NCBI GenBank assembly: GCA_963793695.1
Contig: CAWCBB010000028.1
Coordinates: 657 to 64,656 of the forward strand
Origin: an uncultured Acidobacteriota bacterium
GTDB taxonomy: Bacteria; Acidobacteriota; Thermoanaerobaculia; Gp7-AA8
DNA length: 64,000 bases
Direction: 5' to 3'
Shown piece after piece: positions 25,101 through 43,770 of the stretch (positions are counted from its first letter, which is position 1; every line of letters starts with the position of its first letter). Position numbers and translations under genes: made by a program. The notes beneath the pieces were generated by a model that saw only the letters and a list, made by a program, of their open reading frames with translations, did not search any database and had not been told where the DNA came from.

Positions 25101-25127
25101 GAATTGCAGATTGCAGATTGCAGATTA
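25101..25127. repeat. One-armed TGCAGAT array
   Basis: TGCAGAT x3 at 25105-25125, between the stop at 25125-25127 and the start at 25079. I see no inverted partner. Confidence 0.7.
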
Positions 25128-27187
25128 CCGATCCCGTTCGATGCGATCGAACGTGATCGCGCCGCGAGTCACGCGAATCGCGGGCCGTTGGTGCTGACGT
25201 TCAGTGGGAAGTTTGACGAAGCCGTCGCCCGTCGGCGGTACTTCGTGGATCCGGCCGTCGATCTCGAAAGACCCTCCATTCTCCGCGCGCACGTGGATCG
25301 TCGCGGGCCCCGGCTGCATGCGGAAGCGCATCGATTCGCCTTCGCCGAGCCGCCACCCTCCCGTGAAGCGGAAGCGCGCGACGGTCCAGATCTCCGGGTC
25401 GAGCAGGCCCTGGCGGTGATCGACGTGCACGTCTTCGAATTGAACCACGGAACCGGGGCGCAGCCCCGCCGCGAGGAAGAGCGTGAGCGCGAGAGCTGCG
25501 ACGATCGCGGCGGCGCGGCCTGTGGTGCGGGCGTCCGCCCGCCCAGGAGGGCGGCATCCCCCACCCGAGGCGGGCGAGACGCCCGCACCACACCGAACGC
25601 CACGATCGCGATGAGCAGCAGGATCGCCGCGGCCCACGCCGCGCCGTTCGGCCGGATGAAGCTCGGCAGCAGCCGCGAGAAATCGCTTCCGAAACGGATC
25701 GACAGCCATTCGCCGAGCACCGACTCGCCGCTCGCGATGTGGAAGAGGCGCCAGGGGAACGCGACGCCGTGGACGGCGAGGAGCGCGGTCCAGACCGCGA
25801 CGGGCGCGAGCCATGCGCGCGTCCGCTCGAGCAGCGCGCCCGCGGAGACCGCGACCAGCGGCGCGAACACGACCAGATAGCGCAGCGGCGGCGACCAGCC
25901 GCCATGCCACTCTTCGCGCGGCAGGAGGAGGATCAGATACGGGACAGCGGCGATCGAAGCTGCACGGATCGCGAAGTGACTCGTTCTCCGTTCTCCGTTC
26001 TCCGTTCTCCGCGGCAGGGGCTCGTCTTGCGCCGACGGAACGGCGTTTGCGCCGGAGAACGGAGAACGGAGAACGGAGAACGCCTTTGTGAGAGCAGCAA
26101 CGAGTGCCGCGAACCAGACAGGCGCTTGCAGCAGCATCCCCGCCTGCCCGTCGAGGAGCAGCCCGAACATGCCGCGCGCGTATTTCCAGAGCGACGCCGG
26201 CGCGAGCTCACTCCACCGATGCACCTGGAGAGGGTTGCCGACCAGGAGCCAGCCGCCGAGGAGCGGAAGGGCGACGACCGCCGCGAGCGCGAGCGCGAGT
26301 TTCCGCGCGCCTCGGTCGGAGATCACGACGACGAGCGCGAACACGGCCGCGATCGCCATGAAGCGGAGTTGCAGGAGCGAGAGAGCGACGAGCCACGCCG
26401 CCAGCCGGCCGTACTTCCGCTTCCCCGCGGCCCGCATCGCTTCGCTCAGGCAGAGGGCTCCCGGAACCTCCGGCCAGATGCGCACCGCGTAGAAAAGGAA
26501 GGGAGGGGCGAACGCGAGGAGCGGCCAGAGGCGAAGCGCCGCCTTGCGGGAAACGCCGTGCTCCTCGGTGAGCGCGAAAATCGATCCGACGGCGGCCGCG
26601 CCGAGGAGCGCGATCGTCGCCATGGCGCCCCATAGGCCGCCGAGGGCGACCCCCGGGACGAGCAGGAGCGGCAGGAACGGCTCGTGCCGCGCGTAGATCT
26701 CCCCCGCCGGCCCGACGGGATCGAACGGCTGCGGCTGGAGATCCAACCGCTGCGTCGCGGACCGCTCGAGGTGCGCGTACTGGTTCGCGAGATCGAGATC
26801 GCGGTCGTGAAGGATCGACTCCGCGATCAGCACGTAGTACGGCTCGTCGCCGTCGATCGGCCAGGCGAGCGTCTCGGTTCCCACGATCAGGAAGATCGCG
26901 GCGGCGAAGACCGCGGCCGCGCGCGGCGACCACCGCACTTCGCCTGCGGGAACGAGCGCGCACCAGAGAAGGAAGTGCGCGAGCTTCGCCGCGACGACGA
27001 TCGCGAGGAGAAGCGAGGGGGCTAGATGGACCCCGAGCGCGCCGGCGGAAGCGAGGGAGCCGCCGAGGGCGACCCACGTCGCCACGTCGGAGATCACGAA
27101 GCGGCGGCGATGGAGAGGGAGAAACCAGTGCGGCGCGGCGCTGATCAGCGCCGCGAAAAGGATGAGGAGGATCTGCTCGCGCGTCAT
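25125..27187 (-). CDS. Large polytopic GT-C-like (ArnT/PMT_2-like) membrane glycosyltransferase, frame switched at a REP doublet
   Basis: More than 12 hydrophobic segments and a DGDEPYYVLIAESIL first-loop motif. ORF 25169..27187 is protein-like down to the REP doublet at 25522-25591. Downstream of it, the protein-like frame is that of ORF 25125..25910 (..VVQFEDVHVDHRQGLLDPEIW..). The gene also contains the 99-nt GGAGAAC palindrome at 25983-26081 in frame. Confidence 0.6.
25522..25591. repeat. REP-A doublet inside the GT-C gene, 70 nt, coincident with the frame switch
   Basis: The first hairpin reads GCGGGCGTCCGCCCGC, one nt shorter than GCGGGCGTCTCGCCCGC in the other copies. Confidence 0.85.
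25983..26081. repeat. Tandem-repeat-armed palindrome, GGAGAAC family, inside a CDS
   Basis: GTTCTCC x4 (25983-26010), a 43-nt core, then GGAGAAC x4 (26054-26081). The total is 99 nt, or 33 codons, read through in frame as SVLRSPFSGANAVPSAQDEPLPRRTENGERR. Confidence 0.9.
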
Positions 27188-28923: not shown

Positions 28924-28941
28924 TCGAGAGAGTCAGAAGAC

Positions 28942-29052
28942 AAATGCAAAATGCAAAATGCAAAATGCAAAGTCCAAGAAAGGGTCGAGGATCCTGGCGT
29001 CGAAACCCTTTTTGCATTTGTCATTTTGCATTCTGCATTTTGCATTTCTTCT
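28942..29052. repeat. Tandem-repeat-armed palindrome, AT-rich AAATGCA family
   Basis: AAATGCA x4 at 28942-28969. The inverted TTTGCAT TTGTCAT TTTGCAT TCTGCAT TTTGCAT lies at 29011-29045. The core holds the hairpin AAAGGGT..ACCCTTT. Confidence 0.9.
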
Positions 29053-29067
29053 TTCTCACCACCTTAT

Positions 29068-29961
29068 TTACGTGCGAGGCCCCGCCTCCGTCGGGTTTCT
29101 CACCCACTCCGGATCGAAGCCCGCCACGGTCTCCTCGGTCATCTCGCCGCGATAGACCACGCGCGCGTCCCCGCTCAGGCGGATCGCCTCGGGCAGCAGC
29201 TCGACCTCGAGCGTGATCCCGCTCCGCGTCAGCACGTGCAGCGGCGAGGTCGCCTTCCCCAGGCGCGCGCTCATCGAAGAGGAGGCGACCACGCCGGACC
29301 CGCACGAGAGCGTCTCCCCCTCGACTCCCCGCTCCCACGTCCGGACCGCGATCTCGCCCTTCCCCGTCACGCGCACGAAATTCACGTTCGCCCCCGCCGG
29401 AAGATCGGCATGGTGGCGGATCTCCCGCCCGATCGGGTCGATGTCCATCGACCAGAGGTCCCCCTCGACGAAGATCACGTAATGCGGCACCCCGACCATC
29501 AGATACGAGCCCAGGGCCGTGGATCCGTCCGCGAGGCGCAGCGGCCGCGCCTCCGCGACCTCCGTCGGCGGCGGGAGCGTGAGCGTCACCCGCTCGCCCT
29601 CGACCCTCGCCGGGACGATCGCGTATCCCGTCTCGATCGTCATCTCCGCCGGCGCCATCCCTTCGAGGAAGGCGGCCCGGGCGGCGCAGCGGGTCCCGTT
29701 CGCGCAGAAGTCCGCGAGGCTGCCGTCGGCGTTGTGGTAGACCATTCGTACGCTCGCCCGCTCGGAGGGCCGCAGCAGGATGATCCCGTCCCCCCCGACC
29801 GAGAGCCGCCGGGTCGTGAGTCTGCGCGCCAGCCCGGTCGGGTCCCCGAGCGCCTCCGCCCGGTCGTCGAAGACGGCGAAGTCGTTTCCTCCCCCCGCCA
29901 TCTTCAGAAAGCGCTTCGGGAGGGAACCCGATGAAGGGACGCGATTTGCGGTTCTGGCCAT
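29068..29961 (-). CDS. dapF: Diaminopimelate epimerase
   Basis: FLKMAGGGNDFAVFD, CANGTRC and SCGSGVVA (the two catalytic Cys motifs). Confidence 0.85.
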   Translation of the reverse strand: MARTANRVPSSGSLPKRFLKMAGGGNDFAVFDDRAEALGDPTGLARRLTTRRLSVGGDGIILLRPSERASVRMVYHNADGSLADFCANGTRCAARAAFLEGMAPAEMTIETGYAIVPARVEGERVTLTLPPPTEVAEARPLRLADGSTALGSYLMVGVPHYVIFVEGDLWSMDIDPIGREIRHHADLPAGANVNFVRVTGKGEIAVRTWERGVEGETLSCGSGVVASSSMSARLGKATSPLHVLTRSGITLEVELLPEAIRLSGDARVVYRGEMTEETVAGFDPEWVRNPTEAGPRT

Positions 29962-29962
29962 C

Positions 29963-29976
29963 GTGAAATTTTTCAC
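29963..29976. promoter_or_regulatory. Perfect 14-nt palindrome GTGAAATTTTTCAC (CRP/FNR-family-like GTGA-N6-TCAC)
   Basis: It lies in the divergent dapF / VWA spacer, 2 nt from the dapF ATG. It is AT-rich in a GC-rich context. Confidence 0.3.
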
Positions 29977-30130
29977 CTCGTGCGGACGCTTGGAACCGGC
30001 GATTCTGGTGGGCGCGCGTTCCGGGCGGGGAGCGTACCTTTTTGCCTCTCCCGTGCGTCGAAAGAGTCGGGCGCCCTTCAGCCGGAAGTCTGATCGAAGC
30101 TCCCGAGTTGCGCAACACCGCTCGTCCACG

Positions 30131-31834
30131 ATGGAGGTCCGCCGCTTGAAACTCGTCATCTCGCTCCCTCTCGCCCTCTCGCTTCTCCTCCCCTTCTCCC
30201 TGGCCGCCCAGGAGCAGCCCGAACAGGCGCAGAGCGAAGTTCCCCGCCTCATCGAGACGGTCGACGTCCGCGTCATCAACGTCGACGTCGTCGTCACCGA
30301 CCGTAAGGGGAACGCGGTCACCGGCCTCACCAGGGACGACTTCATCATTTACGAGAACGGCCGCCCGCAGAAGGTCAGCAACTTCTACGAGGTCGTGACG
30401 CGCACCGACCACCCCGAGGAACCGCAGATCCGCTCCGAGGAGTCTTCCGAGCTGCGCGCTCCGGAGCAGCCGGAGCAGCTGCGGCGGAAGATCGTCATCT
30501 TCATCGACAACCTCTCGCTCGCCCCCTTCAACCGGAACCGCGTCTTCACGGCGATGAAGAAGTTCGTCAACGAGACGCTGCGGCCGGGCGACCTCGCGAT
30601 GGTCGTGACCTGGAACCGCAGCATGAAGGTGCGCCTCCCTTTCACGGGTGACGCGAAGCAGATCGAGCAGACGCTCGACGCGATCGCCGGCGAGAGCGCT
30701 CTCGGCATCCAGCAGATCAGCGACCGCCGCCAGATCCAGAGCCAGATTCGCGACGCGAAGCGGTTCGAGGAAGCCGTGGCCGCGGCGCGCGGGTACTCGC
30801 AGGCCCTCGAGCACGACCTCCGGCAGACCGTCCGCGAGATCAACGCCCTGATGGCCACCCTCGGCGGCGTCGAGGGAAAGAAGATCATGCTCGTCACGAG
30901 CGAAGGCTTCCAGATGCAGCCGGGGCGCGAGCTCTTCTACTTCATCGACGACATCGGCCGCGAAAAGGAGAGCTGGATGGGCGTCGGCTCCACGTTCCTC
31001 GAGTCGATGTCGTTCAATCTGACCAATCAGATCGAGTCGATCGCCCGCTCCGCGAACTCGAACAACATCACGCTCTACACGCTGCACGCGGGCGGCCTGA
31101 TGGGCTTCAACGAGGGGTCGGCCGAAAACCAGCAGCCCGTCTCCGCGAGCGTGCAGCAGGCCGCGCTCTCCAACAGCACCGACTCGCTCCGGATGATGGC
31201 CGACCTCACGGGCGGCCTCGCCGTCGTCGGGACGAACAACTTCGGCGCCGCGTTCGATCGCATCGCGCAGGACATCTCCTCGTACTACTCGCTCGGCTAC
31301 CGCTCCGGGACCGAGCGCGTCGACCGCCAGCGCTCGCTCGAGGTGAAGACGAGGAACCCGCAGTACCTCGTCCGCTCCCGCCGCAGCTTCGTCGAGAAAT
31401 CGGTCAACAGCGAGATGAGCGACAAGGTCATCGCGAACCTCTTCTACGAGAGCTCCCTGAACGATCTCGGCATCGTCATCCGGACCGGCCCGCCGCGCCA
31501 GCAGGACAACGGAACGTTTCTCGTCCCGCTCGAGACCCTCATCCCGATCGACCGCCTCACCCTCCTCCCGCGCGGCGACGAGTACGTCGGCAGCTTCGCC
31601 ATCTACATCGTCGTCTCCGACAAGAACGGCGACATGTCCGAGGTCCAGAGGCAGAGCCACCAGGTGCGCGTCCCCGCCGCCAAGATGGGCGGGCTGAAGG
31701 GGCAGCACTACACGTTCGCCCTCGACCTGGTGATGAACCCGGGGCGCGGGAAGATCTCGGTCGGCCTCGCGGACGAGGTCACGAACGCGACCGGCTTCCG
31801 GACGACCGAGCTGGTCGCGCGGGACCTCCGCTAG
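30131..31834 (+). CDS. VWA domain-containing secreted protein (TIGR03436 'acidobacterial VWFA-related' type)
   Basis: Signal peptide MEVRRLKLVISLPLALSLLLPFSLAAQ, followed by VDVRVINVDVVVTDRKGNAVTGLTRDDFIIYENGRPQKVSNF and VIFIDNLS (the VWA MIDAS region). Confidence 0.8.
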   Translation: MEVRRLKLVISLPLALSLLLPFSLAAQEQPEQAQSEVPRLIETVDVRVINVDVVVTDRKGNAVTGLTRDDFIIYENGRPQKVSNFYEVVTRTDHPEEPQIRSEESSELRAPEQPEQLRRKIVIFIDNLSLAPFNRNRVFTAMKKFVNETLRPGDLAMVVTWNRSMKVRLPFTGDAKQIEQTLDAIAGESALGIQQISDRRQIQSQIRDAKRFEEAVAAARGYSQALEHDLRQTVREINALMATLGGVEGKKIMLVTSEGFQMQPGRELFYFIDDIGREKESWMGVGSTFLESMSFNLTNQIESIARSANSNNITLYTLHAGGLMGFNEGSAENQQPVSASVQQAALSNSTDSLRMMADLTGGLAVVGTNNFGAAFDRIAQDISSYYSLGYRSGTERVDRQRSLEVKTRNPQYLVRSRRSFVEKSVNSEMSDKVIANLFYESSLNDLGIVIRTGPPRQQDNGTFLVPLETLIPIDRLTLLPRGDEYVGSFAIYIVVSDKNGDMSEVQRQSHQVRVPAAKMGGLKGQHYTFALDLVMNPGRGKISVGLADEVTNATGFRTTELVARDLR

Positions 31835-31844
31835 CAGGCCGACC

Positions 31845-32588
31845 GTGCGCGTTCTCCTGACGCTGCAATACCTCGGCACGCGCTACGCCGGGTGGCAGTC
31901 GCAGGAGAACGCGCTCGCGGTCCAGCAGGTCGTCGAGGCCGCTCTCGGCACGCTCTGCCGCGAGCCGGTCCGCGTCGTCGGCGCCAGCCGCACCGACGCG
32001 GGCGTTCACGCCGAGGATCAGAAGGCGCACTTCGACCTGCCGATCCCCATCGGTCTCCGGGGCCTCCTCCTCGGGCTCAACGACCTGCTGCCGAGAGACG
32101 TCCGCGCGATCGCGGCGCGCGAGGTCGCGCCCGACTTCCACGCGCAGCATCGCGCGATCGCGAAGACCTACCGCTATCAGATCTGGAACGGGGAGATCGC
32201 CGACGTCTTCCGCGCCGCGACCTGGGCTCACGTCCGCGCGCCCCTCGAGCTGGGGCTGATGATCGAAGCCTCGCGCGCCCTGGTCGGGCCGCACGACTTC
32301 CGCGCATTCACCGTCGTGGAGCCGGAGGTCGCCTCGACCGAGCGGGCGATCGACGGCCTCGAGCTGAGCGGGGAGGGCCCGGCCATCACCATGCGCGTGA
32401 CGGCCGCGGGCTTCCTCCGCTACATGGTCAGACGCATCGCCGGCCAGCTCATCGAGATCGGCCGGGGCAAGCTGCCGGTCGACGCGGCCGCCGCCGCCCT
32501 CGAGCCGACCTTCGCCGAAGCGCGCTGGACCGCGCCGCCGGAGGGGCTGGTCCTCGAGCGGGTCCGTTATGAGGACGAGGACGAATGA
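31845..32588 (+). CDS. truA: tRNA pseudouridine(38-40) synthase
   Basis: GASRTDAGVHA catalytic motif. 247 aa with a GTG start. Confidence 0.9.
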   Translation: MRVLLTLQYLGTRYAGWQSQENALAVQQVVEAALGTLCREPVRVVGASRTDAGVHAEDQKAHFDLPIPIGLRGLLLGLNDLLPRDVRAIAAREVAPDFHAQHRAIAKTYRYQIWNGEIADVFRAATWAHVRAPLELGLMIEASRALVGPHDFRAFTVVEPEVASTERAIDGLELSGEGPAITMRVTAAGFLRYMVRRIAGQLIEIGRGKLPVDAAAAALEPTFAEARWTAPPEGLVLERVRYEDEDE

Positions 32589-32733
32589 GTCCAGGAGTCC
32601 AGGAATCTAAGAGTCTTGGCGTCCGAAATTCAGCGTCCGCGATGCGGATCGGACCGTTTCGGGGCGTCCCGATTGCTGCATTCAGGTGCTGACCGCCGAC
32701 TCCCAGACGCCAAGACTCGTGGACTCCCGACTG
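32587..32733. repeat. Tandem-repeat-armed palindrome, octamer GAGTCCAG family
   Basis: 5 octamers at 32587-32626, starting inside the truA stop codon. 5 inverted octamers lie at 32694-32733. Confidence 0.85.
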
Positions 32734-32768
32734 CCGTTAACCGCTGTGCTAACATTCATTTCCCGACG

Positions 32769-33614
32769 ATGATCGACCTCACCAAACTCGCCGAGCCGGG
32801 CTCGATCGAAGAGAGCCTGATCCGCGGAATCGATCTGAAACGCCTTCCCCGTCACGTCGCCGTGATCATGGACGGCAACGGGCGCTGGGCGCGACAGCGC
32901 AGCCTTCCGCGCGTCGAGGGGCACCGCGCCGGGATCGCCTCCGTCCGCGAGACCGTCGAGACGGCGGCGCGCCTCGAGCTCGGGGCGCTCACCCTCTACG
33001 CTTTCTCGGTCGAGAACTGGAAGCGTCCCCGCTACGAAGTCTCGACGCTGATGATGCTTCTCAAGGAGTACCTCCGGAAGGAGATCGACACCCTCCGGGA
33101 GAACAACATCCGGTTCGTTCCGATCGGCCGCATCGAGGGACTCGATCCGACCGTGCAGCGCGAGCTGCGCTGGGCGGAGAAGGAGACCGCGGAAAACACG
33201 GGCCTCCTCTTCCAGATCGCCCTCAACTACGGCGGCCGCGCCGAGATCGTCGACACGGTCAACCGCATCATCGGCGTGCTTCGCGAGAAGGGCCTCCGCG
33301 ATTTCGAAGTCGACGAAGAGTTCTTCGCGAACCACCTCTACACGGCGCGCGTCCCCGATCCCGACCTCCTCATCCGGACGAGCGGCGAGCTGCGGGTCTC
33401 GAACTTCCTCCTCTGGCAGATCGCCTACTCCGAGATCCACGTCACCAAGGTCCTCTGGCCCGACTTCCGCCGCCGCCATCTCTTCGAGGCGATCGTCGAC
33501 TTCCAGTCGCGCGATCGCCGCTACGGCGGCGTGCCCGACGAGGAGTCGGAGATCTTCGCCGAGGCGGAGCCGGACGCTCTCGAAAGGAGAGAACAGCAGC
33601 CTCGCTCGAGGTGA
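32769..33614 (+). CDS. uppS: Isoprenyl transferase (undecaprenyl diphosphate synthase)
   Basis: HVAVIMDGNGRWA and IRTSGELRVSNFLLWQIAYSE. Confidence 0.9.
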   Translation: MIDLTKLAEPGSIEESLIRGIDLKRLPRHVAVIMDGNGRWARQRSLPRVEGHRAGIASVRETVETAARLELGALTLYAFSVENWKRPRYEVSTLMMLLKEYLRKEIDTLRENNIRFVPIGRIEGLDPTVQRELRWAEKETAENTGLLFQIALNYGGRAEIVDTVNRIIGVLREKGLRDFEVDEEFFANHLYTARVPDPDLLIRTSGELRVSNFLLWQIAYSEIHVTKVLWPDFRRRHLFEAIVDFQSRDRRYGGVPDEESEIFAEAEPDALERREQQPRSR

Positions 33615-34466
33615 GCTCTCCGATGACGGACGCGCCGTCGACCCCCGTTCCCCGCCGTTTCGCCCGTGAGCTGACGACGATCGTCGCCGCGCCCGTCGTC
33701 GTCTGGATCATCGGCTGGGCTCCGGTCTGGGCGTACGTCGCCCTCGTCACCGTCGCGCTCGCGATCGCGCTCTGGGAGTTCATCGCTCTCGGCGCGCGCA
33801 AGGGATACCCGGTCCAGCAGGTCATCTCGATCCTGCTCATGCTCCTTCTCGTCTGGACCTTCCTCGAACCGGGAGTGTCCGTCGAGATCGGCGTCTTCGC
33901 AGTCCTCCTCATCATTCCGGCGTCGTACGTCTTCGCGCGCTCCCCGTTGGAGGAGGCGCTTCCGGCGACCGCGGTCTGCGTCCTCGCGACGCTCTACGTC
34001 GGCATGCTCGGCGGCGCGATGATCCGGCTTCGAACGGATTTCCCCGGCGTCGGCCCCGAGCTCGTCTTCTTCCTGCTCATCGCGGTGTGGGCGAGCGATG
34101 CCGGGGCGTACTACGTCGGAAGGCGCTTCGGCACGCCACCGCCTCTCCCCTCGCGTGAGCCCGAAGAAGACCATCGAAGGGGGGATCGGCGGTCTCGCGA
34201 CCTCGCTTCTCGCCGCCGCGATCGTCCACTTCACCTTCTTCCCCGAGTTCCCGCTCATGCACGCGCTCCTCGCCGCGCTCCTCCTCTCGATCGCCGGCGT
34301 CGTCGGCGACCTCGCCGAGTCGATGTGGAAGCGCTCGGCCGCGGTCAAGGACTCGGGCGTCCTCATCCCCGGCCACGGCGGCTTCCTCGACCGCGTCGAC
34401 TCGATCCTCTTCACCGCCCCGATCCTCTACGCCTACTGGTTCGTCCTCAACGAGCCCTGGCCGTAA
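33611..34466 (+). CDS. cdsA: Phosphatidate cytidylyltransferase, one frame disruption
   Basis: SDAGAYYVGRRFG lies in ORF 33611..34531. SPKKTIEGGIGG and GHGGFLDRVDS lie in ORF 34098..34466. The switch is near 34131-34135. Confidence 0.8.
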
Positions 34467-34470
34467 AGGC

Positions 34471-34568
34471 GGTCTGGGGGTCTAGGGGTCCCGCGCCCGG
34501 GCCCGCGCCCGGACCCGCGCCCGGCCTTTGACTTCTGGACTCGATACCGCCCTCGCGCCTAGACTCGG
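34471..34568. repeat. Composite: octamer GGTCTGGG arms enclosing a single GGGCRC-family arm
   Basis: GGTCTGGG GGTCTAGG GGTCCCGC (34471-34494), then CCGCGC CCGGGC x3 plus TTTGACTT (34491-34534), then the inverted CTGGACTC..CTAGACTC (34535-34566). It ends about 6 nt before the dxr ATG. Confidence 0.8.
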
Positions 34569-34573
34569 CGCGC

Positions 34574-35753
34574 ATGCGCCGCATCTCGATCCTCGGCTCC
34601 ACCGGCTCCATCGGCCGCAGCACTCTCGCGGTCGTCGACGCCTTCCCCGACCGGCTGGAGGTCATCGCCCTCTCCGCGGGGCGCAACGTCGAGGTCCTCG
34701 CCGAACAGGTCCGCCGCTACCGCCCGCAGCTCGTCTCCCTCGGCCACGAGGCCGACGAGCCGCGCCTTCGCGAGCTTCTCGGACCCGAGGACCCTCCCGA
34801 GATCGTCTGCGGCAGCGAGGGGGCGCGCGCGGTCGCGACGCACCCCGGCTCGGACACCGTGATCGCGGCGATCGTCGGCGCGGCCGGGATTCCTCCCGTC
34901 TACGACGCCCTCCTCCGCGGCAAGCGCGTCGGCATCGCGAACAAGGAAGTCCTCGTCGCCGCGGGCGACCTGATGACCGAGGCCGCGCGGAAGCATGGAG
35001 GCGAGATCCTTCCGGTCGACTCCGAGCACAACGCCGTGCACCAGGCGATCCGCTGCGGCGGCCATGACGAGATCCAGCGCATCATCCTCACCGCCTCCGG
35101 CGGGCCGTTCCTGCGGCGCGACATCGCGACCTTCGGCGAGATCACCGTCGACGCCGCCCTCGCGCATCCGACCTGGAAGATGGGGAGCAAGATCTCGATC
35201 GACTCCGCGACGATGATGAACAAGGGGCTCGAGGTCATCGAGGCGCATCACCTCTTCGGGCTCGAGGCCGACCGGATCGACATCATCATCCACCCGCAGT
35301 CGATCGTTCACTCGATGGTGGAGTTCGTCGACGGATCGATCATCGCGCAGATGTCGACCGACCGACATGAAGTTCCCGATCCAGTACGCCCTCCTCTATC
35401 CCGAGCGCACCCCCGCTCCCTTCGCCCGCCTCGACCTCGGCAAGATCCGGCAGCTCGAGTTCCTCCAGGTCGAACCGGAACGTTTCCCGGCGGTCGCGCT
35501 GGCGTACGAAGCCCTCTCCGCCGGCGGCTCCGCGCCGGCCGTGCTCAACGCCGCGAACGAGATCGCCGTCAGCCGGTTCCTCCACGGCGAGATTCCGTTT
35601 CTGAGCATCGTGGAGATCGTCCGCACGGTCTTCGACAAGCACCTCCCCTCGCGCGCCCCCCTCGGCTCCATCGACGACGCCCTCGAGTGGGACCGCTGGG
35701 CGCGCAATGAAGCGCGCGGAGTGCATGTTGCTCAAGTAGTCGGGGAGAAGTAG
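34574..35753 (+). CDS. dxr: 1-deoxy-D-xylulose-5-phosphate reductoisomerase, one frame disruption
   Basis: ILGSTGSIG, DSEHNA, SGGPF, HPTWKMG and NKGLEVIEA lie in ORF 34574..35710. The C-terminal domain (MKFPIQYALLYPER...) lies in ORF 35367..35753. The switch is near 35356-35366. Confidence 0.9.
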
Positions 35754-35891
35754 GCAGGGAGAAGGGTCCCCCCCCGACCGGGTGGCACGATCTTCGATGA
35801 GCGAAACCGCGGTCCCTATCGGGTCGTACTGAATTGGAACGGATCCCGGTCACGCGAACCCTTCTCCCTGACTCCATTTCCCTGACTACAA
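35735..35891. repeat. Tandem-repeat-armed palindrome, 14-nt unit GGGAGAAGTAGGCA
   Basis: Left arm at 35735-35769, overlapping the last dxr codons and the TAG stop. Right arm CTTCTCCCTGACTCCATTTCCCTGACTAC at 35861-35889. The rseP ATG is at 35896. Confidence 0.75.
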
Positions 35892-35895
35892 AAAT

Positions 35896-37212
35896 ATGGC
35901 CTCCAACATCGCCACCAACCTCGTCGCCTTCGTCATCGTCCTCGGCTTTCTGATCTTCGCCCACGAGGCGGGTCATTTCGTCGTGGCGAAGCTCTTCCGC
36001 GTGCGCGTGCTCGTCTTCTCGTTCGGCTTCGGAAAACGGCTGTTCGGGTTCCGGCGGGGTGACACCGACTACCGCGTCTCTCTCCTTCCTCTCGGCGGCT
36101 ACGTCCGGATGGCGGGGGATGCGGCCGAGGAGGAGCTGACCGGGGCGCCGGACGAGTTTCTCTCGAAGCCGAAGTGGCAACGGTTTCTGATCCTGCTCGC
36201 CGGGCCCGCGATGAACATCCTCATCGCGATCCTGTTTCTCGCCGGGCTGCTCATGGCGGGGCGGGAGATGCTGCGCGAGTCGCAGCCGGTGATCGGGAGC
36301 CTGGTCGCCGGGAAGCCGGCGGAGACGGCGGGGCTGCGGATCGGCGACCGGATCGTGAGCGTGGGCGACGAGCGGATCCGGACGTGGGAGGATCTCAAGC
36401 TCGCGATCAGCATGAATCCCGGGACGCGGGTCCGCGTCGGGTACGAGCGCGACGGCCAGGAGCGGACGACGCTCCTCACGCCGGAGCGCGTGGTGACGGA
36501 CTACGGCGTCACGGGCGTGGCGGGGATCACCCCGTTCATCTCGACGGAAGTCGGCAAGGTTCTCCCTGGATCGGCGGCTGAGGGGGCGGGGCTCCGTTCC
36601 GGAGACGTGATCGTCGCCGCGGACGGAAAGCGCACCGGGCAGCTCGTCGAGCTGGAGAAGGCGCTCGACGAGAACAAGGCGAAGAGCGTTCGGCTGACGG
36701 TCGCACGCGGCGGCGCGGAGGTCGATCTGATTCTCGCTCCGATGAAGAGCGCGCAGGAGGCCTGGCCCGGCTTCGTCCCGCCGACGGAGGTCCGCAAGCT
36801 GGCCCTCGGGCCGGCGCTCTCCGAGAGCGTCTCGCAGAACTGGAAGATGGTGAAGTACACCTTCACGGTCATCGGTCGCCTCTTCAAGGCGCAGGGAAGC
36901 GTGAAGGACTTCTCCGGCCCGATCTCGATCGCCCGGATCTCGGGCGAGATGCTCCGCACCGGCGCGCAGGCGGTCATCTTCCTGATGGCGACGATCTCGC
37001 TCCAGCTCGGCGTGCTGAACCTGCTTCCGATCCCGGTCCTCGACGGGGGGCACATCTTCATCCTGCTGTTTGAAGGGGTCGCGGGCAGGGATCTGTCGTT
37101 GACCGCGAAGGAGCGGTTGTTCCGGATCGGATTCGCGTTTCTGGCGGCCTTGATGATCGTCGTGCTCTTCAACGACGTCATCCAGAACATTGGGATCATG
37201 AGGCGGGGATAA
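35896..37212 (+). CDS. rseP: RIP metalloprotease RseP (M50 site-2 protease)
   Basis: HEAGHF, PDZ region and NLLPIPVLDGGH. It completes the conserved uppS-cdsA-dxr-rseP order. Confidence 0.9.
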   Translation: MASNIATNLVAFVIVLGFLIFAHEAGHFVVAKLFRVRVLVFSFGFGKRLFGFRRGDTDYRVSLLPLGGYVRMAGDAAEEELTGAPDEFLSKPKWQRFLILLAGPAMNILIAILFLAGLLMAGREMLRESQPVIGSLVAGKPAETAGLRIGDRIVSVGDERIRTWEDLKLAISMNPGTRVRVGYERDGQERTTLLTPERVVTDYGVTGVAGITPFISTEVGKVLPGSAAEGAGLRSGDVIVAADGKRTGQLVELEKALDENKAKSVRLTVARGGAEVDLILAPMKSAQEAWPGFVPPTEVRKLALGPALSESVSQNWKMVKYTFTVIGRLFKAQGSVKDFSGPISIARISGEMLRTGAQAVIFLMATISLQLGVLNLLPIPVLDGGHIFILLFEGVAGRDLSLTAKERLFRIGFAFLAALMIVVLFNDVIQNIGIMRRG

Positions 37213-37224
37213 CCGTTCGGCGAC

Positions 37225-38191
37225 GGGAGCGCGGGCGTCCTCGCCCGCCGTTGCGGCGGCGTCCCGCCGCCGATCCGCAATGGCGCCGCGGGACGCGGCG
37301 CCAACGGCGGCCGAGACGGCCGCGCCCCTGAAGGCTTTCCGAGGTACACTTTCCCTCCCACCTTCGCTCTCTGACGCTGCCTGCTTCGGCGACGTCAAAT
37401 GAGAACCACACGAACGATCCTCTATTCAACAACTGCGCATCTGAGGATCCGCGGCCGGTCCCGCCTTCCACACTTCGAGCTGGATCACGCGATCTATTTC
37501 GTCACCTGGCGACTCGCCGATTCGCTGCCGCAGCATGTCGCAGAGGATCTGCAGAAGGAATGGAAGTGGCTGGGTGAGCAGCTTCAGACGCGCGAAATGA
37601 CGCCCGCCGCACGGAGCGCTCTGTTGAGTCACTATTCGAAGACATACGAGGGGGCTCTCGACGAGGGGTTCGGCTCCTGCATTCTTTCGAATCGCGACGC
37701 GGCGCACATCGTCCAGGGAGCACTCCTCTTTTTCGACCAGCAGCGGTACGACCTGTTCGCCTGGGCGGTAATGCCCAACCACGTTCACGTCGTGTTCTTC
37801 CTTGAGAGAGGAGACCAACTGGATCGCGTACTCCATTCGTGGAAGTCGTTCACGGCACATCGAATCAACCAACGTCTCGACCGGCGCGGAAAACTGTGGC
37901 AGGACGAGTACTTCGACCGGATTGTCCGCGACGAGCGCGAGCTCGAGCAGACGATTCAATACGTGATCAACAACCCCGCCGCGGCGGGCATGCAGGACTG
38001 GCCTTTCGTCGGAGCAAAGTTCCGGGGAATTGAATAACGGAGCAGCTGCAGCTGGTGTCGGGCGTCCTCGCCCGCGACAGGGGCGCGGGCGTCCTCGCCC
38101 GCCGTTGCGGCGGCGTCCCGCCGCCGCCAGATCCGGATACAAGGCGCCGCGGGGACGCGGCGCCAACGGCGGCCGGGACGGCCGCGCCCCT
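37225..38191 (+). mobile_element. RAYT gene with flanking compound REP-B palindromes
   Basis: Left flank 37225-37329 and right flank 38080-38191 are near-identical ~105-nt units: GGG(A/G)GCGCGGGCGTCCTCGCCCGCCGTTGCGGCGGCGTCCCGCCGCCG..GGCGCCGCGGGACGCGGCGCCAACGGCGGCCG(A/G)GACGGCCGCGCCCCT. An extra half hairpin lies at 38055-38079. Confidence 0.7.
37399..38037 (+). CDS. REP-associated tyrosine transposase (RAYT, IS200/IS605-like Y1 HUH enzyme)
   Basis: 212 aa with the HUH motif PNHVHVVF, the catalytic-Tyr motif IQYVINNPAAAG, and the N-terminal RLPHFELDHAIYFVTWRL. It is flanked on both sides by compound REPs. Confidence 0.8.
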   Translation: MRTTRTILYSTTAHLRIRGRSRLPHFELDHAIYFVTWRLADSLPQHVAEDLQKEWKWLGEQLQTREMTPAARSALLSHYSKTYEGALDEGFGSCILSNRDAAHIVQGALLFFDQQRYDLFAWAVMPNHVHVVFFLERGDQLDRVLHSWKSFTAHRINQRLDRRGKLWQDEYFDRIVRDERELEQTIQYVINNPAAAGMQDWPFVGAKFRGIE

Positions 38192-38227
38192 GTGGGACCC
38201 ATCACGATCGCGAACCAACGCGCCGTG

Positions 38228-39478
38228 CTATTCGTCCACGCCCAGAATCATCAATCGCAATCCATTCAGCGCCATCTGCGTCGCGTAATGCTTCACGAGC
38301 TCCCGGTTCCCGACGAACTGATACAACCGGTGGCGCACCTGCTCGCGGCTCGCGACGGCCACGTGCACCGTCCCGACCGGCTTCTTCGGCGTTCCGCCGG
38401 CCGGCCCCGCGATGCCGGTGATCCCGATGCCGTACGTCGTGTCGAACCGCCGCCGCACACCCTTCGCCATCTCGCGCGCGACCGGCTCCGACACCTCCCC
38501 CTCCTCCTGCACGAGCTTCGGGTCGACCCCGATCATGAAGAGCTTCGCCTGCTGCGAGTATGTGACGACGCCTCCCATGAAGTACGCCGAGCTCCCCGAC
38601 ACGTCCGTCAGCCTCGACGCGAGCAGACCTCCGGTGCACGACTCCGCCGTCGACACCGTCTCCCCGCGCGAGGCGAGCTGCCGTCCCACTGCGCACTCGA
38701 GCGTCTCGTCGTCCAGGCCGAACACGCGCGAGCCGTAGATCTCCCGCAGCTCCTTCTCCATCGCCACGAGCCGCGGATACGACTCGTCCGCCGTCCCGTC
38801 CGCCCGCAGATGGATCTGGATCTCGCCGCGCGACGCGAGGATCGTGATCACCTCGCCTCGATGGTTTCGGTAGAACGGCCGGAGCTTCTCCTCCACCGCC
38901 GACTCCGTCATCCCGACCACGCGGACGATCCGCCGGTGGATCGACTGCGACGAGAGACTCCGCAGCCACGGCTCGAGATCATCCTTCACCATCCCTTCGA
39001 GCTCGCGCGGCACTCCGGGGAACACCCAGATGTGCCGCTGCCGGCCGTTCCAGCGGACGTTCAGATGAAATCCCGGCGCGGTGCCGCGCTTGTTCTCGAG
39101 AATGCGGTGTCCGGGAAAGACGAGAGCCTGCTTCCGGTTCACCTCGGGCATTTCCAGCCCGCGCTCCTCGAACATCTTCCGGATCCGCGCGAGGACCCCC
39201 GCATCCTCCTCGAGCGGCACCCCGATCACCTTCGCGATCACGTCCTTCGTCAGATCATCCTCGGTCGGGCCGATGCCGCCCGAGGTGATGACCAGCTCGT
39301 GGCGATCGAGCGCCGCGCGCAGCTCCTGCTCGATGATCTCGGGATCGTCCGGCACGACGTACTTCCGCGCCAGCTCCACCCCGTACTTCTCGAGCGCTTC
39401 GGCGATCCCGAGAGAGTTCGTGTCGACGCGCGTGTGCCCCAGGAGCTCGGTTCCAATCGCGAGAATTGCGGCCTTCAT
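38228..39478 (-). CDS. cinA: Competence/damage-inducible protein CinA (MoCF-type domain + nicotinamide-nucleotide amidase domain)
   Basis: AILAIGTELL, ITSGGIGPTEDDLT and ESCTGGLL, with GGGAGG upstream of the ATG. Confidence 0.9.
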   Translation of the reverse strand: MKAAILAIGTELLGHTRVDTNSLGIAEALEKYGVELARKYVVPDDPEIIEQELRAALDRHELVITSGGIGPTEDDLTKDVIAKVIGVPLEEDAGVLARIRKMFEERGLEMPEVNRKQALVFPGHRILENKRGTAPGFHLNVRWNGRQRHIWVFPGVPRELEGMVKDDLEPWLRSLSSQSIHRRIVRVVGMTESAVEEKLRPFYRNHRGEVITILASRGEIQIHLRADGTADESYPRLVAMEKELREIYGSRVFGLDDETLECAVGRQLASRGETVSTAESCTGGLLASRLTDVSGSSAYFMGGVVTYSQQAKLFMIGVDPKLVQEEGEVSEPVAREMAKGVRRRFDTTYGIGITGIAGPAGGTPKKPVGTVHVAVASREQVRHRLYQFVGNRELVKHYATQMALNGLRLMILGVDE

Positions 39479-39507
39479 TCAGCCTCCCGTTTTGCTCCGT
39501 GGCGCGA

Positions 39508-39702
39508 ATTGCAGATTGCAGATCTCGGATTGCAGATTGGCGTCGGCCCCATCACTCCGCCATTTCAAGACTACGCGTCATGCGCCTCCCCCACCCAGAT
39601 CCCTCGCTACGCTCGGGATGACATGAGCGCGAGTAGCTGCCTCCGCGCCCGTGCACGCGCCCGCGCCCGCGCCCGGTTTTTCCAATCTGCAATCTGCAAT
39701 CA
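39508..39702. repeat. Tandem-repeat-armed palindrome, TGCAGAT family, with nested modules
   Basis: Left arm at 39508-39538. Right arm AATCTGC x2 plus AATCACG at 39684-39704, overlapping the ABC-F stop. Inside are the inverted box CCAGATCCCTCGCTACGCTCGGGATGACATG (39595-39625) and a single GGGCRC arm (39644-39683). Confidence 0.9.
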
Positions 39703-41613
39703 CGTCTCCAGCCCCTGCCACTCCGCATACAGCCCCTCGATCTCCTGCTTCAATTCGCCCTTCCGTTCCTGCAGAACCCGCACCCGCTCCCCGTCCCTCC
39801 AGACGCTCTCCGAGCAGAGCTCCAGATCGTGCGCCTCGATCTCCTTCTCCGCCGCGGCGATCCGCGCCTCAATCGCGGCCGCGCGCTCGGCCGCCTTTCG
39901 CGTCGCCTTGTCGCGCCGCTTCTGTTGATCCCGGGCGAGAGTGGGATCGGCCTGCGCCGGCGCGGCCGTCTTCGGCGCCGGCTTCCGCACCGCCTCCGAC
40001 TCCGCCCTCGACGACTCCTCGACCAGCCGCGCAACCACCTGCGAGTAGTTCCCGGCGTGGATCTCCGCTTCTCCGTCCTCGACCGCGATGATGTGCTCCG
40101 CGACGCGGTCGATGAAATATCGGTCGTGCGAGACGACGATCAGCGCGCCGGTGAACCCTTCGAGCGCTTCTTCCAGGGCCTCGCGCGTGTAGACGTCGAG
40201 ATGGTTCGTCGGCTCGTCGAGCAGGAGCAGGTTCCCGCCGACGTACATGATCTTCGCGAGCGCGAGCCTCCCCTTCTCGCCGCCGGAGAGCGCCGCGGTC
40301 TTCTTCTCGATGTCGTCCTCGAAGAACGAGAAGCGCGCGAGGTACGACCGCACCTGCTCTTCGGTGCGCGAGTGATCGAGGTCCCAGATCTCGTCGAGGA
40401 CGGTCGCCGTGGGGCGCAGGTCGCCGAGGGTCTGGTCGTAGTAGCCGACCTGGACGTTGTGGCCGTAGTGGACGTCGCCGCCGAGCGGCATGATCCGGCC
40501 TGCGAGCGTCTTGAGGAGCGTCGATTTGCCGGAGCCGTTCGGCCCCATGATCGCGTAGCGCTCGCCGCGGCGCACGGTGAGGTCGACGCCGCGCACGACC
40601 ACCGTGTCGTCCCATCCAACGGTGAGCTTCTCGGCGGTCAGCGCGATCGCGCCGGAGCGCGGCCCGGCGTCGAGCTTGAACTTCGCGAGCGTCTCGTCGT
40701 GCTCCGGCCGCTCGAGGCGCTCGAGCCGGTCGAGCATCTTCCGGCGCGATTGCGCCTGCTTCGTCTTCTGGCCGGCGATGTTGCGGCGGATGAACTCCTG
40801 CGTCCGCGCGATCTCCTCCTGCTGCCGCTCGAAGAGCGTCGCCATCTGCTCCATCCGCTCGGCGCGCTGCGCGACGAAGCGGTCGTAGTTGCCGTGGTAC
40901 TCGATGAGGTTGCCGTGCGCGAGCTCGACGATCCTCTGGACGGTCCGGTTGAGGAACGTCCGGTCGTGCGAGATGACCAGGTACGCCCCCGCGTACGAGT
41001 TGAGGAACTCCTCGAGGAACTCGATCCCGCGGAGGTCGAGGTGGTTCGTCGGCTCGTCGAGCAGGAGGACGTCGACGCGCGAGAGAAGCATGCGCGCGAG
41101 CATCGCCCGGTTCTGCTGCCCGCCGCTGAACTCCTGGATCGGCCGCTCCCAATCCTCCTTCGCGAATCCCACCCCCGTCAGCACCCTCTCCACCTCGGAG
41201 TGGATCGTGTACCCGTCCGAGTGCTCGTACTCGTGCTGCAGGTCGGCGTACTTGTGGAGGATCGCGTCGTGGTCCGGCTCGTCCGGGTCGGCGAGCCGGT
41301 GCTCGATGTCGCGCATCTTCTGCTCGATCGCCAGCACGTCCGCGAACGCCGAGAGGACGAAATCGAAGAGCGACACGGACCGATCCGCGTCGAGGTGCTG
41401 CCCGAGGTGGCCGATGCGCAGCCCGTTGAGGCGGAACACCTCTCCCCCGTCCGGCTCCTCGGTACCGAGGAGGATCCGGAAGAGGGTCGTCTTCCCCGCG
41501 CCGTTGCGGCCGACGAGCCCGACCCGCTCGCCCGGGTTGTGCTGCCACGTCGCGTCGCGGAGGACGTCGTTGAAGCCGTAGGATTTCCTTATGTTTTCGA
41601 ATCGATAAAGCAT
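39700..41613 (-). CDS. ABC-F family ATPase (two ABC domains, C-terminal coiled coil)
   Basis: GRNGAGKTT / LSGGQQNR / LLLDEPTNHLD and GPNGSGKST / LSGGEKGR / LLLDEPTNHLD. The ATG at 41613 (MLYRFENIRKSYG) is chosen because the upstream part of the ORF is repeat-encoded. Confidence 0.9.
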   Translation of the reverse strand: MLYRFENIRKSYGFNDVLRDATWQHNPGERVGLVGRNGAGKTTLFRILLGTEEPDGGEVFRLNGLRIGHLGQHLDADRSVSLFDFVLSAFADVLAIEQKMRDIEHRLADPDEPDHDAILHKYADLQHEYEHSDGYTIHSEVERVLTGVGFAKEDWERPIQEFSGGQQNRAMLARMLLSRVDVLLLDEPTNHLDLRGIEFLEEFLNSYAGAYLVISHDRTFLNRTVQRIVELAHGNLIEYHGNYDRFVAQRAERMEQMATLFERQQEEIARTQEFIRRNIAGQKTKQAQSRRKMLDRLERLERPEHDETLAKFKLDAGPRSGAIALTAEKLTVGWDDTVVVRGVDLTVRRGERYAIMGPNGSGKSTLLKTLAGRIMPLGGDVHYGHNVQVGYYDQTLGDLRPTATVLDEIWDLDHSRTEEQVRSYLARFSFFEDDIEKKTAALSGGEKGRLALAKIMYVGGNLLLLDEPTNHLDVYTREALEEALEGFTGALIVVSHDRYFIDRVAEHIIAVEDGEAEIHAGNYSQVVARLVEESSRAESEAVRKPAPKTAAPAQADPTLARDQQKRRDKATRKAAERAAAIEARIAAAEKEIEAHDLELCSESVWRDGERVRVLQERKGELKQEIEGLYAEWQGLET

Positions 41614-41623
41614 GGCGTAGGAC

Positions 41624-41761
41624 GATTGCGGATTGCAGATTGCAGATTGCAGATTACGGAGCCGGACGGAGCGTTTCTCTCTCCGAACGACCCTCGGCAC
41701 TGCAAACCACGAGCGCTAGCGTACAATTGCACCGATTCTCAATCTGCAATCTGCAATCGAC
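41624..41761. repeat. Tandem-repeat-armed palindrome, TGCAGAT family
   Basis: 5 units at 41624-41658. The inverted units GATTCTC AATCTGC AATCTGC AATCGAC lie at 41734-41761. The core begins TACGGAGCCGGAC, as in the 17981 copy. It lies between the divergent ABC-F and pdxJ starts. Confidence 0.9.
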
Positions 41762-41764
41762 ACC

Positions 41765-42478
41765 ATGTTTCTCGCGGTCAACATCGATCATATCGCCACC
41801 ATCCGCCAGGCACGGAGGGCGGACGAGCCGGATCCGGTCGCCGCGGCGGTGATCTGCGAGCTCGCGGGGGCGCGCGGGATCACCGTCCATCTCCGGAGCG
41901 ACCGGAGGCACATCCAGGACCGCGACATCGAGGTGCTTCGGCGGACGGTGACGACCCATCTCAACGTGGAGATGGCGGCGACGCGGGAGATGACGCGGAT
42001 CGCGCAGCAGCAGAAGCCGCACCGGGTGACGCTCGTCCCCGAGCGGCGGGAGGAGCTGACGACCGAGGGCGGGCTGGACGTCGTACTTCATGCCGGCAAC
42101 GTCGAGGGCGCGGTGCGGGAGCTCTCGTCCGCGGGGATCGAAGTCTCGATCTTCGCCGATCCCGACCTCGAGCAGATCCGCGCCTGCCACAGGCTGGGCG
42201 CGCCGGCGGTCGAGATCAACACCGGCAAGTTCGCCGACCAGTGGCGTGACGCGAAGGCGGCGCGCGAGCAACTCGAGAAGATCGAGAACGCCGCGAAGGC
42301 GGGCCGGAAGCTCGGCCTCCGCGTCTTCGCCGGGCACGGCCTGACTTACCGCAACATCCACCCGATCGCGCGCATCACCGAGATCGAGGAGCTGAACATC
42401 GGGCATTCGATCATCGCCCGGGCGTCGCTCGTCGGGCTGGAGCGGGCGGTGAGGGAGATGATCGCGCTGCTCGGATGA
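41765..42478 (+). CDS. pdxJ: Pyridoxine 5'-phosphate synthase
   Basis: [24 protein letters not shown] and FAGHGLTY. Confidence 0.95.
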
Positions 42479-43555: not shown

Positions 43556-43575
43556 GGTATCCCTCGATCTTGAAT

Positions 43576-43770
43576 TGCAGATTGCAGATCGCAGATCGCA
43601 GATTGCAGATTAGCTCTCTACCGCAGGCTGCGGATTATAGGATGTCATCCCGAGCGTAGCGAGGGATCTGGGCGGAGGACGCGCGTAACGCGGCTTCGTT
43701 CTCAGGCGGGATCCTCAACCCCACGCCCGATCAGCAATCCCCAATCCCCGATCCGCAATCCCCAATCCGG
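43576..43770. repeat. Tandem-repeat-armed palindrome, TGCAGAT-related, diverged right arm
   Basis: TGCAGAT/CGCAGAT x5 at 43576-43610. The box GATGTCATCCCGAGCGTAGCGAGGGATCTGG lies at 43641-43671. The right arm GATCAGC AATCCCC AATCCCC GATCCGC AATCCCC AATCCGG lies at 43729-43770. Confidence 0.8.

Follow-up and report, generated by a model that had tools for sequence, protein, structure and literature searches.

The window analysed here is a stretch of 64,000 nucleotides from an uncultured Acidobacteriota bacterium of the Thermoanaerobaculia (C28:657-64656), taken from an assembly of 4.46 Mb with 67% GC and 30 contigs that is 68% complete. Loci of the same genome are named by contig (C4, C10, C16, C26, C28, C30), and relatives from other genera are named G002, G003, G004, G010 and G023. 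A 195-base gap between two genes of the window, at 39508-39702, consists of a hairpin-forming repeat in which three kinds of small repeats are stacked: tandem heptamer arrays as outer arms, a short hairpin here called the box, and a hexamer array with an A-run junction here called the G-module (Table 1). In the list of open reading frames, the minus-strand gene 39700-41613 has its stop codon (39700-39702) within the right arm (39683-39702).

The arms are tandem arrays of variable length, called with Tandem Repeats Finder (TRF), and are complementary to each other over 16 nt at 100% and over 20 nt at 85%. Read on the minus strand, the element runs from the left arm through GGAAAAACC, GGGCGCGGGCGCGGGCGCGTGCACGGGCGCGG, the box hairpin and a segment of 55 nt to the right arm; on the plus strand the (CCGCGC)x5.5 array at 39643-39675 is followed by GGTTTTTCC and then by the right arm. 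An exact 25-mer of the box, GTCATCCCGAGCGTAGCGAGGGATC, occurs inverted at 39598-39622 and again at 43644-43668 and 53465-53489, i.e., three matches in the window against 0.00 expected from 100 shuffles. The exact 25-mer, the arrays and the pairing of the arms bear out the sequence-only reading of this locus, according to which TGCAGAT-type arms enclose an inverted box and a single G-arm with its junction. Of the recurrences of the box listed in that reading, those at 43641-43671 and 53462-53491 contain the exact 25-mer, the one at 60-89 is degenerate and the one at 53640-53660 is a partial inverted copy, which reads CTACGCTCGGGATGAC (53640-53657).

Parts of the element recur elsewhere. The 55-nt segment (39542-39597) aligns with eight other copies in the genome (GCGCRTGACGCG ... 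GG-CG.G ... CCC.ACG), and the composite of box, ~55 nt and (AATCTGC)n right arm aligns across nine loci; the copy at 39508-39702 shares 78-79% identity over 117 nt with C4:493964 and C4:387106. The G-module at 39641-39682 is near-identical to 22980-23014 and 4396-4441. In the sister element at 22945-23093, the arms are 85% complementary over 34 nt and enclose GAAAGTCAAAAACC with a G-rich array (22977-23014) and then a GC hairpin, so that its plus strand reads left arm, GTCAAAAACC, GGGCGCGGGCGCGTTCACGGGCGCG, hairpin with the GAGCGAAGCGA loop, right arm. The same module order is common to 39508-39702 (other strand), 22945-23093 and C16:522326-522564. The earlier description of the sister (given as 22947-23094) was thus right about its outer arms, G-arm and GC hairpin; the "opposite orientation" of its G-arm disappears when one of the two elements is flipped, because within a symmetric outer palindrome an inner module has no meaningful orientation by itself. 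The copy at 39508-39702 most plausibly belongs to a lineage of composites that are copied, rather than being a fresh stack of independent insertions. A single G-arm and a half box are normal in such a lineage, and here they are probably remnants of deletions. In predicted folds the outer arms form one stem within which the inner hairpins fold independently (z = -3.4 for 39508-39702, -7.7 for 22945-23093 and -6.8 for 4395-4567).

Table 1. Elements of the window and their parts (positions of the window; strand given where assigned).
Feature	Position	Strand	Remarks
Left outer arm, (ATTGCAG)n heptamer array	39508-39541		TRF 39508-39539, x4.6; pairs with 39682-39701; outer stem in RNA fold
Segment of ~55 nt between box and heptamer arm	39542-39597	-	Belongs to the conserved composite of box, 55 nt and arm
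Box, REP-type hairpin ATCCC-GAGCGTAGCGA-GGGAT with 5' TGTC tag, single (half) unit	39598-39622	-	Exact match
G-module: (GGGCGC)n array, TGCACGGGCGCG motif, A-run junction GGAAAAACC on the minus strand, unpaired	39641-39682	-	TRF (CCGCGC)x5.5 at 39643-39675
Right outer arm, (CAATCTG)n	39683-39702		TRF (CAATCTG)x2.7 at 39683-39701
Left (ATTGCAG)n arm of sister element	22945-22976		Abuts start codon of gene 21987-22946 (-)
G-module: AAAGTCAAAAACC junction and G-rich array	22977-23014	+	Same sequence family as 39641-39682
GC hairpin CCCCTCGCCCCGT-GAGCGAAGCGA-ACGGGGAGAGGGG	23017-23053	+	Box loop on a different stem; folds as its own hairpin
Right (GCAATCT)n arm	23067-23093		Overlaps stop codon (23092-23094) of gene 23092-24204 (-)
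Element with both G-modules paired, junctions outside	4395-4567		Arms 58 nt at 76%, 31 nt at 94%
Left octamer array (GGTCTRGG)n, then C-rich G-module, then GGCCTTTGACTTC junction	34471-34535		Right octamer arm vestigial
TGCAGAT-armed element, left arm cut by window start	1-157		Holds degenerate box GGTCATCCCCCAGAGCGGAGCGAGGATC at 60-89
Left arm (ATTGCAG)n, box 43644-43668 (+), 55-nt segment, variant right arm (CAATCCC)n	43574-43768		TRF; 25-mer match
Left MITE end CAATGGCCTTAACTTAA, box 53465-53489, RAYT-type REPIN 53494-53590, partial inverted box 53640-53657	53434-53657		Three-layer nest
REP-associated tyrosine transposase gene	37624-38037	+	NCBIfam NF047646, 80.1 bits (cut-off 80)

The box has the properties of a repetitive extragenic palindromic (REP) sequence, being a short, GC-rich, extragenic hairpin of high copy number with TGTC at its 5' end and GTAG in its loop. 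Genome-wide there are 112 exact and 149 near copies, of which ~60 are solo. As in REP doublets forming hairpins (REPINs), boxes are also arranged head-to-head in 45 inverted doublets (37 of ~180 nt, seven of ~102 nt and one outlier of 256 nt), which form long imperfect palindromes; between subfamilies, nothing beyond the terminal ~38 nt (GATGTCATCCCGAGCGTAGCGAGGGATCTGGGYGGGGG) is common. Of 319 occurrences of the loop GAGCGNAGCGA, 227 have at least four paired flanking bases, and the stems around it covary (ATCCC, ATCCT, GGGGGT, GGGGGC, TTTGCC, CACCCT, CCCCGT). The CCCCGT-stem version is the "different GC hairpin box" seen earlier at 22945-23093, so that both elements carry members of one hairpin superfamily. 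A fixed loop on free stems suggests that the loop is what is recognised, a Y1 transposase being the simplest candidate.

Some Y1 transposase genes of the genome are flanked by hairpins. The GGGGGT-stem hairpin flanks both sides of a 146-aa IS200/IS605 Y1 transposase gene (C26:10799-11239), whose product scores 64 bits against NCBIfam NF033573 and matches the ISDra2 and IS608 transposases in the PDB; it is one of 11 Y1_Tnp matches in the genome. Within the window, the REP-associated tyrosine transposase (RAYT) gene 37624-38037 is flanked by GC-rich REPINs, which are also found within box elements. Some other genera of the family carry the identical 25-mer (144 copies in G002, 103 in G023, 27 in G004), many others lack it, and box copy number between genera ranges from 0 to ~200. 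Doublet length is likewise specific to the genus (about 90-105 nt in G002 and G004, 159 nt in G023). Genus-specific copy number and doublet length form the pattern that characterises mobile, protein-recognised DNA.

Two further Y1 transposase genes (C4:612831-613130 and C10:171300-171599) are flanked by tandemly repeated hairpin families of their own (GGCGCAAGCCACCGGACGTGGCGCCAGCCACCGG and CACCGGGCTGACGCCCGGTG), so the genome holds several REPtron-like loci. Rfam matches of the box palindrome to plant miRNA precursors lay far below threshold and were disregarded. BOXB (GTCATCCTGAGCGAAGCGAAGGATC) was rejected as the end of an insertion sequence (IS), as it is part of a non-coding repeat of 100-220 nt.

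Direct evidence of insertion comes from a transposable element of the miniature inverted-repeat class (MITE) in the same genome, which has CAATGGCCTTAAC ends (the left end at 53434 being CAATGGCCTTAACTTAA) and shows the defining features of its class. Its 22 complete copies measure 250-568 nt, their core is the 180-nt box doublet, and 21 of them are bordered by target duplications of 8-14 bp, mostly 10-12 (e.g., AGTCTAACCC, GGTGTAGGCC, GATCTAGGGG, CGTTTAGACC and GGGCTGACGCCC). Several copies have landed within arrays of heptamers, octamers or nonamers, and others within CCGGGCTGACGCCCGG hairpin loops; the target, about NNNYTAGNNN, recurs in octamer units and REP tags. The MITE copies themselves have received insertions in their box loops. 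With 11 copies lacking any indel of at least 15 nt (reference included) as empty controls, a ~34-nt segment replaces 5 nt of the box loop in eight copies, in either the left or the right box. A REPIN-bearing segment of 165 nt stands directly after GAGCGTAG (GTAG in the box loop) in at least two copies, in mirror-image boxes, and one further copy carries a 302-nt insert at the same point. Modules, grammar and a nesting bias are shown, as are MITE insertions with target duplications and insertions at GTAG in the box loop, each set against empty copies.

At C30:128031-128288 a MITE copy apparently lies in the loop of a BOXB-like hairpin (GTCATCCTGAGGAGCGGCCTCAGGCC, MITE, GCGACGAAGGATC). The 568 nt separating two MITE ends at C30:540327-540894 contain many arrays, both octamer (CTAGACTC) and heptamer (CATTCAA/GAATGTT); they would be explained by armed elements arising or landing in a MITE, or by a complex spacer with a MITE remnant on each side. 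Repeated hairpins are also matched by the "Acido-Lenti-1 RNA" motif of Rfam, with one copy in the window at 53259-53304 (minus strand, 39.9 bits); L015 1071-1212 and L056 263-467 are also among the matches listed. A match to this motif agrees with the taxonomic placement of the genome. Copies below threshold (32 bits) include two just upstream of the Y1 transposase gene C10:171684-172028, two more lie inside the 302-nt insert mentioned above, and the CCGGGCTGACGCCCGG hairpins in which the MITE lands are related to the motif. This motif may be a REP-like repeat rather than a small RNA gene.

The arrangement of modules relative to each other is strongly non-random. In the co-occurrence and orientation matrix, which the sequence-only reading had proposed as a check, the box neighbours a MITE end in 13 cases, the CGTTGAT arm neighbours the box in seven and the G-array the outer end of the box in five, while the CGTTCTC arm adjoins a C-rich G-array 12 times in one orientation against twice in the opposite one (p = 0.013). 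Since preferred neighbours and orientations occur genome-wide, the random order that would have spoken against modular assembly is not what is observed. When neighbouring arrays are coded by chirality as L or R (LL, RR and LR nested or half-nested, RL side by side, with an expected RL share of 25%), arrays of different families give 11 LL, 15 RR, 14 LR and 2 RL among 42 (binomial p = 6e-4), and the inclusion of same-family pairs gives 34 LL+RR against 3 RL. Flanking inverted repeats surround 12 of the 45 box doublets compared to 0/45 in the reversed-sequence control (Fisher p = 2e-4); nine of them are MITE ends and three CGTTGAT arrays. In G003 and G023, box palindromes lie inside heptamer arms of other units, i.e., in the same layering. 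The limited motif orders and orientations in extragenic position, seen both in the matrix and in the common order at three loci, are those of bacterial interspersed mosaic elements (BIMEs), although we do not claim strict membership, as the outer layers are tandem arrays and not REPs.

The arms themselves follow rules of their own. Array pairs are predominantly inverted (194 against 22 direct, 182 of them non-coding), and each family keeps a strict single chirality (e.g., 28/28, 24/24, 17/17). A detectable partner exists for 264 of 657 non-coding heptamer arrays, which makes single arms the rule, and an array without a partner has its "outer" side close to the edge of the spacer regardless of gene strands. 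Most armed hairpins have no box and most boxes have no arms. The heptamer-armed shell at 39508-39702 possesses the terminal inverted repeats of a MITE and lacks both the target duplication and the conserved internal sequence.

A G-arm is not a bare array, but a member of a sequence family of ~40-45 nt (RAGTCAAAAGCC-GGGCRCGGGCGCGGGCGCGTTCACGGGCGCGGG). The genome has 95 G-arrays, and an A-rich junction was present in 66 of the 94 examined; because few G-arms are paired, a G-arm on its own is the usual state. AAATGCA arrays, too, are preceded by the junction AGTCAAA, and GAGTCAAAAG flanks arrays in a relative of another genus. G-modules show no polarity to spacer edges (27 vs 24). Their strand bias is weak (31 vs 20), on account of which their interpretation as half of an intrinsic terminator was rejected. 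The element at 4395-4567 (earlier given as 4396-4566) does have both G-arms paired, and its core holds two-unit remnants of CAACGAT and CAATCAG arrays, as described earlier for this copy only; a second convergent G-array pair exists at 54345/54780, though its members are 370 nt apart and the second is in a coding, Pro-rich linker. There, the (CGCCCG)n array 54752-54775 is in frame in the Pro/Arg-rich linker PRARPRPSPRPAFP of a membrane protein (frame open from ~54440), and its partner 54339-54377 sits just before that gene. In the 4396-4384 region (minus strand), the G-module junction reads TTGACT, with TAGACT 15 nt downstream and ~9 nt before a possible ATG at 4368; this pair of motifs could be a promoter for a leaderless transcript. 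Of the octamer element, thought to extend over 34471-34568, the left array and the G-arm were recovered, while the enclosing right arm (34558-34568) amounts to a ~9-nt match, with no octamer-octamer pairing detected. The composite of MITE end, box, REPIN and partial box at 53434-53657 has four near-identical copies in the genome.

The spacer itself provides a comparison between genera. Its orthologue (39479-39699 here) is 35-48 nt long and empty in four genera, and in five others it is filled, either with armed elements of unrelated kinds, or with a palindrome that is box-type or built of several junction-plus-array layers. This shows independent filling of the spacer in other genera. In G010 the spacer measures 389 nt and has three or four mirrored blocks of GAGTCAAAAG plus a (GAACGCA)n-type array on each side; these blocks are higher-order junction-plus-array repeats with the same junction motif as in the genome studied here. 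A contig search found no other assemblies encoding the same flanking protein.

Our favoured explanation, to which we assign a probability of about 0.55, is that the spacer at 39508-39702 is one copy of a composite hairpin-forming intergenic repeat which arose by mobile hairpins landing in repeats and was subsequently copied. The genome carries at least five classes of small repeats (polar heptamer and octamer arrays, G-modules, box-type REP hairpins with their doublets of ~100-180 nt, RAYT-type REPINs and the MITE). Hairpin-type mobile DNA would land in or beside existing repeats to form a composite; the whole composite would then be copied while its arrays slip, and asymmetric deletion of palindrome centres would leave single inner arms and half boxes. 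We infer that Y1 transposases of the IS200 and RAYT type move the box hairpins as single-stranded DNA and that the heptamer-armed shells are themselves copied as units.

Several observations weigh against this explanation. No target-site duplications of at least 5 nt were found at the module borders of 39508-39702, 22945-23093 and 34471-34535 (chance rate 29%), and the outer flanks share no direct repeat (GGCGCGA / ACGTCTCC at 39508-39702, GGGAGTC / ATCGATGA at 22945-23093). The ends of the box doublets likewise have direct flanking repeats of at least 3 nt at offset 0 in 0 of 45 cases and show just palindromic AT, which is itself the behaviour expected of REPs. None of the 11 Y1 genes in the incomplete assembly is flanked by the ATCCC-stem box. 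The cores of 17 TGCAGAT-armed copies are largely unrelated and differ almost wholly between copies. Modules lie inside heptamer pairs in 31 of 60 cases, a modest excess over the 23.6 given by spacer geometry in a test limited by crude gene calling (3256 calls). Outer arrays are not less pure than inner ones (9 vs 15), so there is no age gradient, and inverted repeats are absent from the flanks of 24 of the 28 RAYT-type REPINs. In the spacer C16:372808 the arms are interleaved and not nested, and in the long spacer C10:152334 side-by-side pairs were missed by the threshold of array detection. Composite copies are moreover not independent events, so that counts overstate the number of nestings; as the sub-combinations are copied composites, many "nestings" are few events copied many times. 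Repeated insertion or assembly from shared modules, as proposed from the sequence, is therefore upheld for the recurring modules with preferred neighbours, for nesting and for insertions in other classes, whereas the element at 39508-39702 and its relatives lack the target duplications looked for. A general preference for inserting into hairpins is not supported, given the REPINs outside inverted repeats, the modest excess inside pairs and the lack of an age gradient.

An alternative view takes the spacer as a purpose-built RNA or DNA structure between genes of an operon, with a selected module order in which each module is a working part, e.g., in protection or processing of transcript 3' ends, operon punctuation or binding of IHF/HU or other nucleoid proteins. 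The elements fill stop-to-start spacers exactly, with arms overlapping the stop codons 39700-39702 and 23092-23094, three loci have the same module order, and the predicted folds are strong at all three elements folded (z from -3.4 to -7.7). A conserved loop with stem covariation would be equally expected from function at the protein or RNA level, and paired tandem-repeat sites in Geobacter, including one with a TCTCCGT unit, have been proposed as IHF/HU sites (PMC2700814). We nevertheless regard a functional design as unlikely, because the orthologous spacer is empty in four related genera and holds unrelated elements in others, and because array orientation tracks the spacer edges, not gene direction. 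G-modules lack edge polarity and have a weak strand bias, and the terminator and promoter scans called no sites at the elements (the promoter scan covered 22000-41900). The range of box copies from 0 to ~200 between genera is what selfish DNA would be expected to show.

Less likely still is chance co-location, by which independent families pile up where insertions are tolerated, with no targeting of hairpins. With most spacers already occupied by armed elements, any newcomer would inevitably end up within one, and the small distance between the geometric null and the observed count inside pairs, the position of REPINs mostly outside palindromes and the majority of solo arrays all agree with this. 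Limits of space, however, do not explain the depletion of RL neighbours (2/42), nor the repeated GTAG box-loop insertions in mirror-image boxes of different MITE copies; the recurrence of the MITE target in octamer units and REP tags and the bias in neighbour orientation (12 vs 2) argue in the same direction. The least probable of the alternatives is growth in situ, in which heptamer, octamer and hexamer arrays would arise at the base of existing hairpins by slippage and block duplication and be mirrored onto the other arm by hairpin-templated repair, so that the boxes came first and the arms later. Arrays are always outermost around box palindromes, both here and in G003 and G023, blocks of GAGTCAAAAG junction and array are mirrored on both arms in G010 and at 6455-6560, and outer arrays are as pure as inner ones. 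Local slippage would not, however, be expected to yield the same unit with fixed chirality at dozens of loci and even in Geobacter (TCTCCGT), and most armed hairpins without a box, most boxes without arms and the two-unit array remnants inside the paired G-arms at 4395-4567 are likewise at odds with it.

A more far-reaching reading is that in this lineage palindrome loops are preferred landing sites of single-strand hairpin transposition. GTAG in the GAGCGTAGCGA loop would be a dedicated entry point for elements driven by a Y1 transposase, and heptamer-armed cruciforms would expose single-stranded interiors. We regard this as speculative and rather improbable. If it were true, spacers would grow as self-reinforcing "Russian-doll" palindromes, a mechanism to build and renew intergenic DNA that could explain the excess of 7-nt tandem repeats between bacterial genes.

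The closest known systems are the BIMEs of Escherichia coli and the REP/REPIN-RAYT systems, in which REPs form mosaics with other motifs and Y1 transposases are flanked by REPs (PMC3333891, PMC2817692, PMC3116915). Shared with them are extragenic high-copy hairpins combined with short motifs in limited orders and orientations directly behind stop codons, inverted doublets without target duplication, and Y1 genes flanked by related hairpins. By contrast, tandemly arrayed units of 6-8 nt, and not REPs, make up the outer layers in this genome, and members of the box family agree in their loop but differ in their stem, with no Y1 gene next to an ATCCC-stem box in the incomplete assembly. REP dimers within longer palindromes are known as GTAG-15 in Anabaena variabilis, GTAG-23 in Thermomicrobium roseum and CGTC-1 in Halothiobacillus neapolitanus (Di Nocera et al., PMC3733652), the outer palindrome of T. 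roseum occurring also alone in hundreds of copies (PMC3733652). These resemble the elements described here in having doublets inside outer palindromic arms, and singletons there are read as dimer remnants. Their outer arms are, however, fixed sequences and not variable-length tandem arrays of many families, and third or fourth layers such as G-modules, MITE shells and loop REPINs are not described there.

REPs are also known as specific targets of insertion sequences, namely IS1397, ISPpu9/10, ISPsy8, ISPa11 and ISRm19/22 (Tobes and Pareja 2006, PMC1525189). Mobile DNA is site-specific in palindromic repeats here as well, with the MITE in REP loops and arrays and the REPIN-bearing segment at GTAG. 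The guests in this genome are, in contrast to full IS elements, non-autonomous and 34-250 nt long, and once formed, a composite spreads as one unit. From Geobacter metallireducens, paired tandem-repeat sites of classes 1-3 are described, some of them belonging to two classes, with the distance between ISGme8/9 and class 1 sites being constant (PMC2700814). Each Xanthomonas genome has 70-75 convergent pairs of GGGAATC heptamers (PMC4692102). Both kinds of site have been read as regulator (IHF/HU) sites or G-quadruplex motifs (PMC2700814, PMC4692102). Like the arms here, these lie in spacers and consist of two inverted arrays, each with 3-5 tandem units of 7-8 nt, at a variable distance from each other; the class 2 unit TCTCCGT of G. 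metallireducens, a member of a different phylum, is the commonest heptamer of the present genome, (CGTTCTC)n being (TCTCCGT)n. Inner modules, nesting rules and REP-type cargo are not described in those papers.

The combination of tandem-array shells, G-modules, a loop-conserved hairpin family and GTAG loop insertions is of a known kind, and its details appear to be new. New are the box as a REP-type hairpin whose loop is shared by the GC hairpin at 23017-23053 and by the Y1-flanking stem variant, the architecture common to 22945-23093 and 39508-39702, the non-random module combinations and, for the MITE, the arrays and REP loops in which it has landed and the later insertions into the box loops of its copies. 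Annotators should be aware that a single "arm" or "box" belongs to a larger composite that is copied, and that candidate small RNA motifs, Acido-Lenti-1 among them, may be REP-like repeats. Detailed dissection of mosaic intergenic repeats has mainly concerned enterobacteria and pseudomonads, and the present genome adds an uncultured soil lineage whose spacers are filled by several interacting repeat systems. It offers empty and filled copies that place insertions at GTAG, together with a nesting rule for tandem-array arms. Current views are not overturned by these results, which extend the known behaviour of REPs, BIMEs and MITEs to a new combination of parts.

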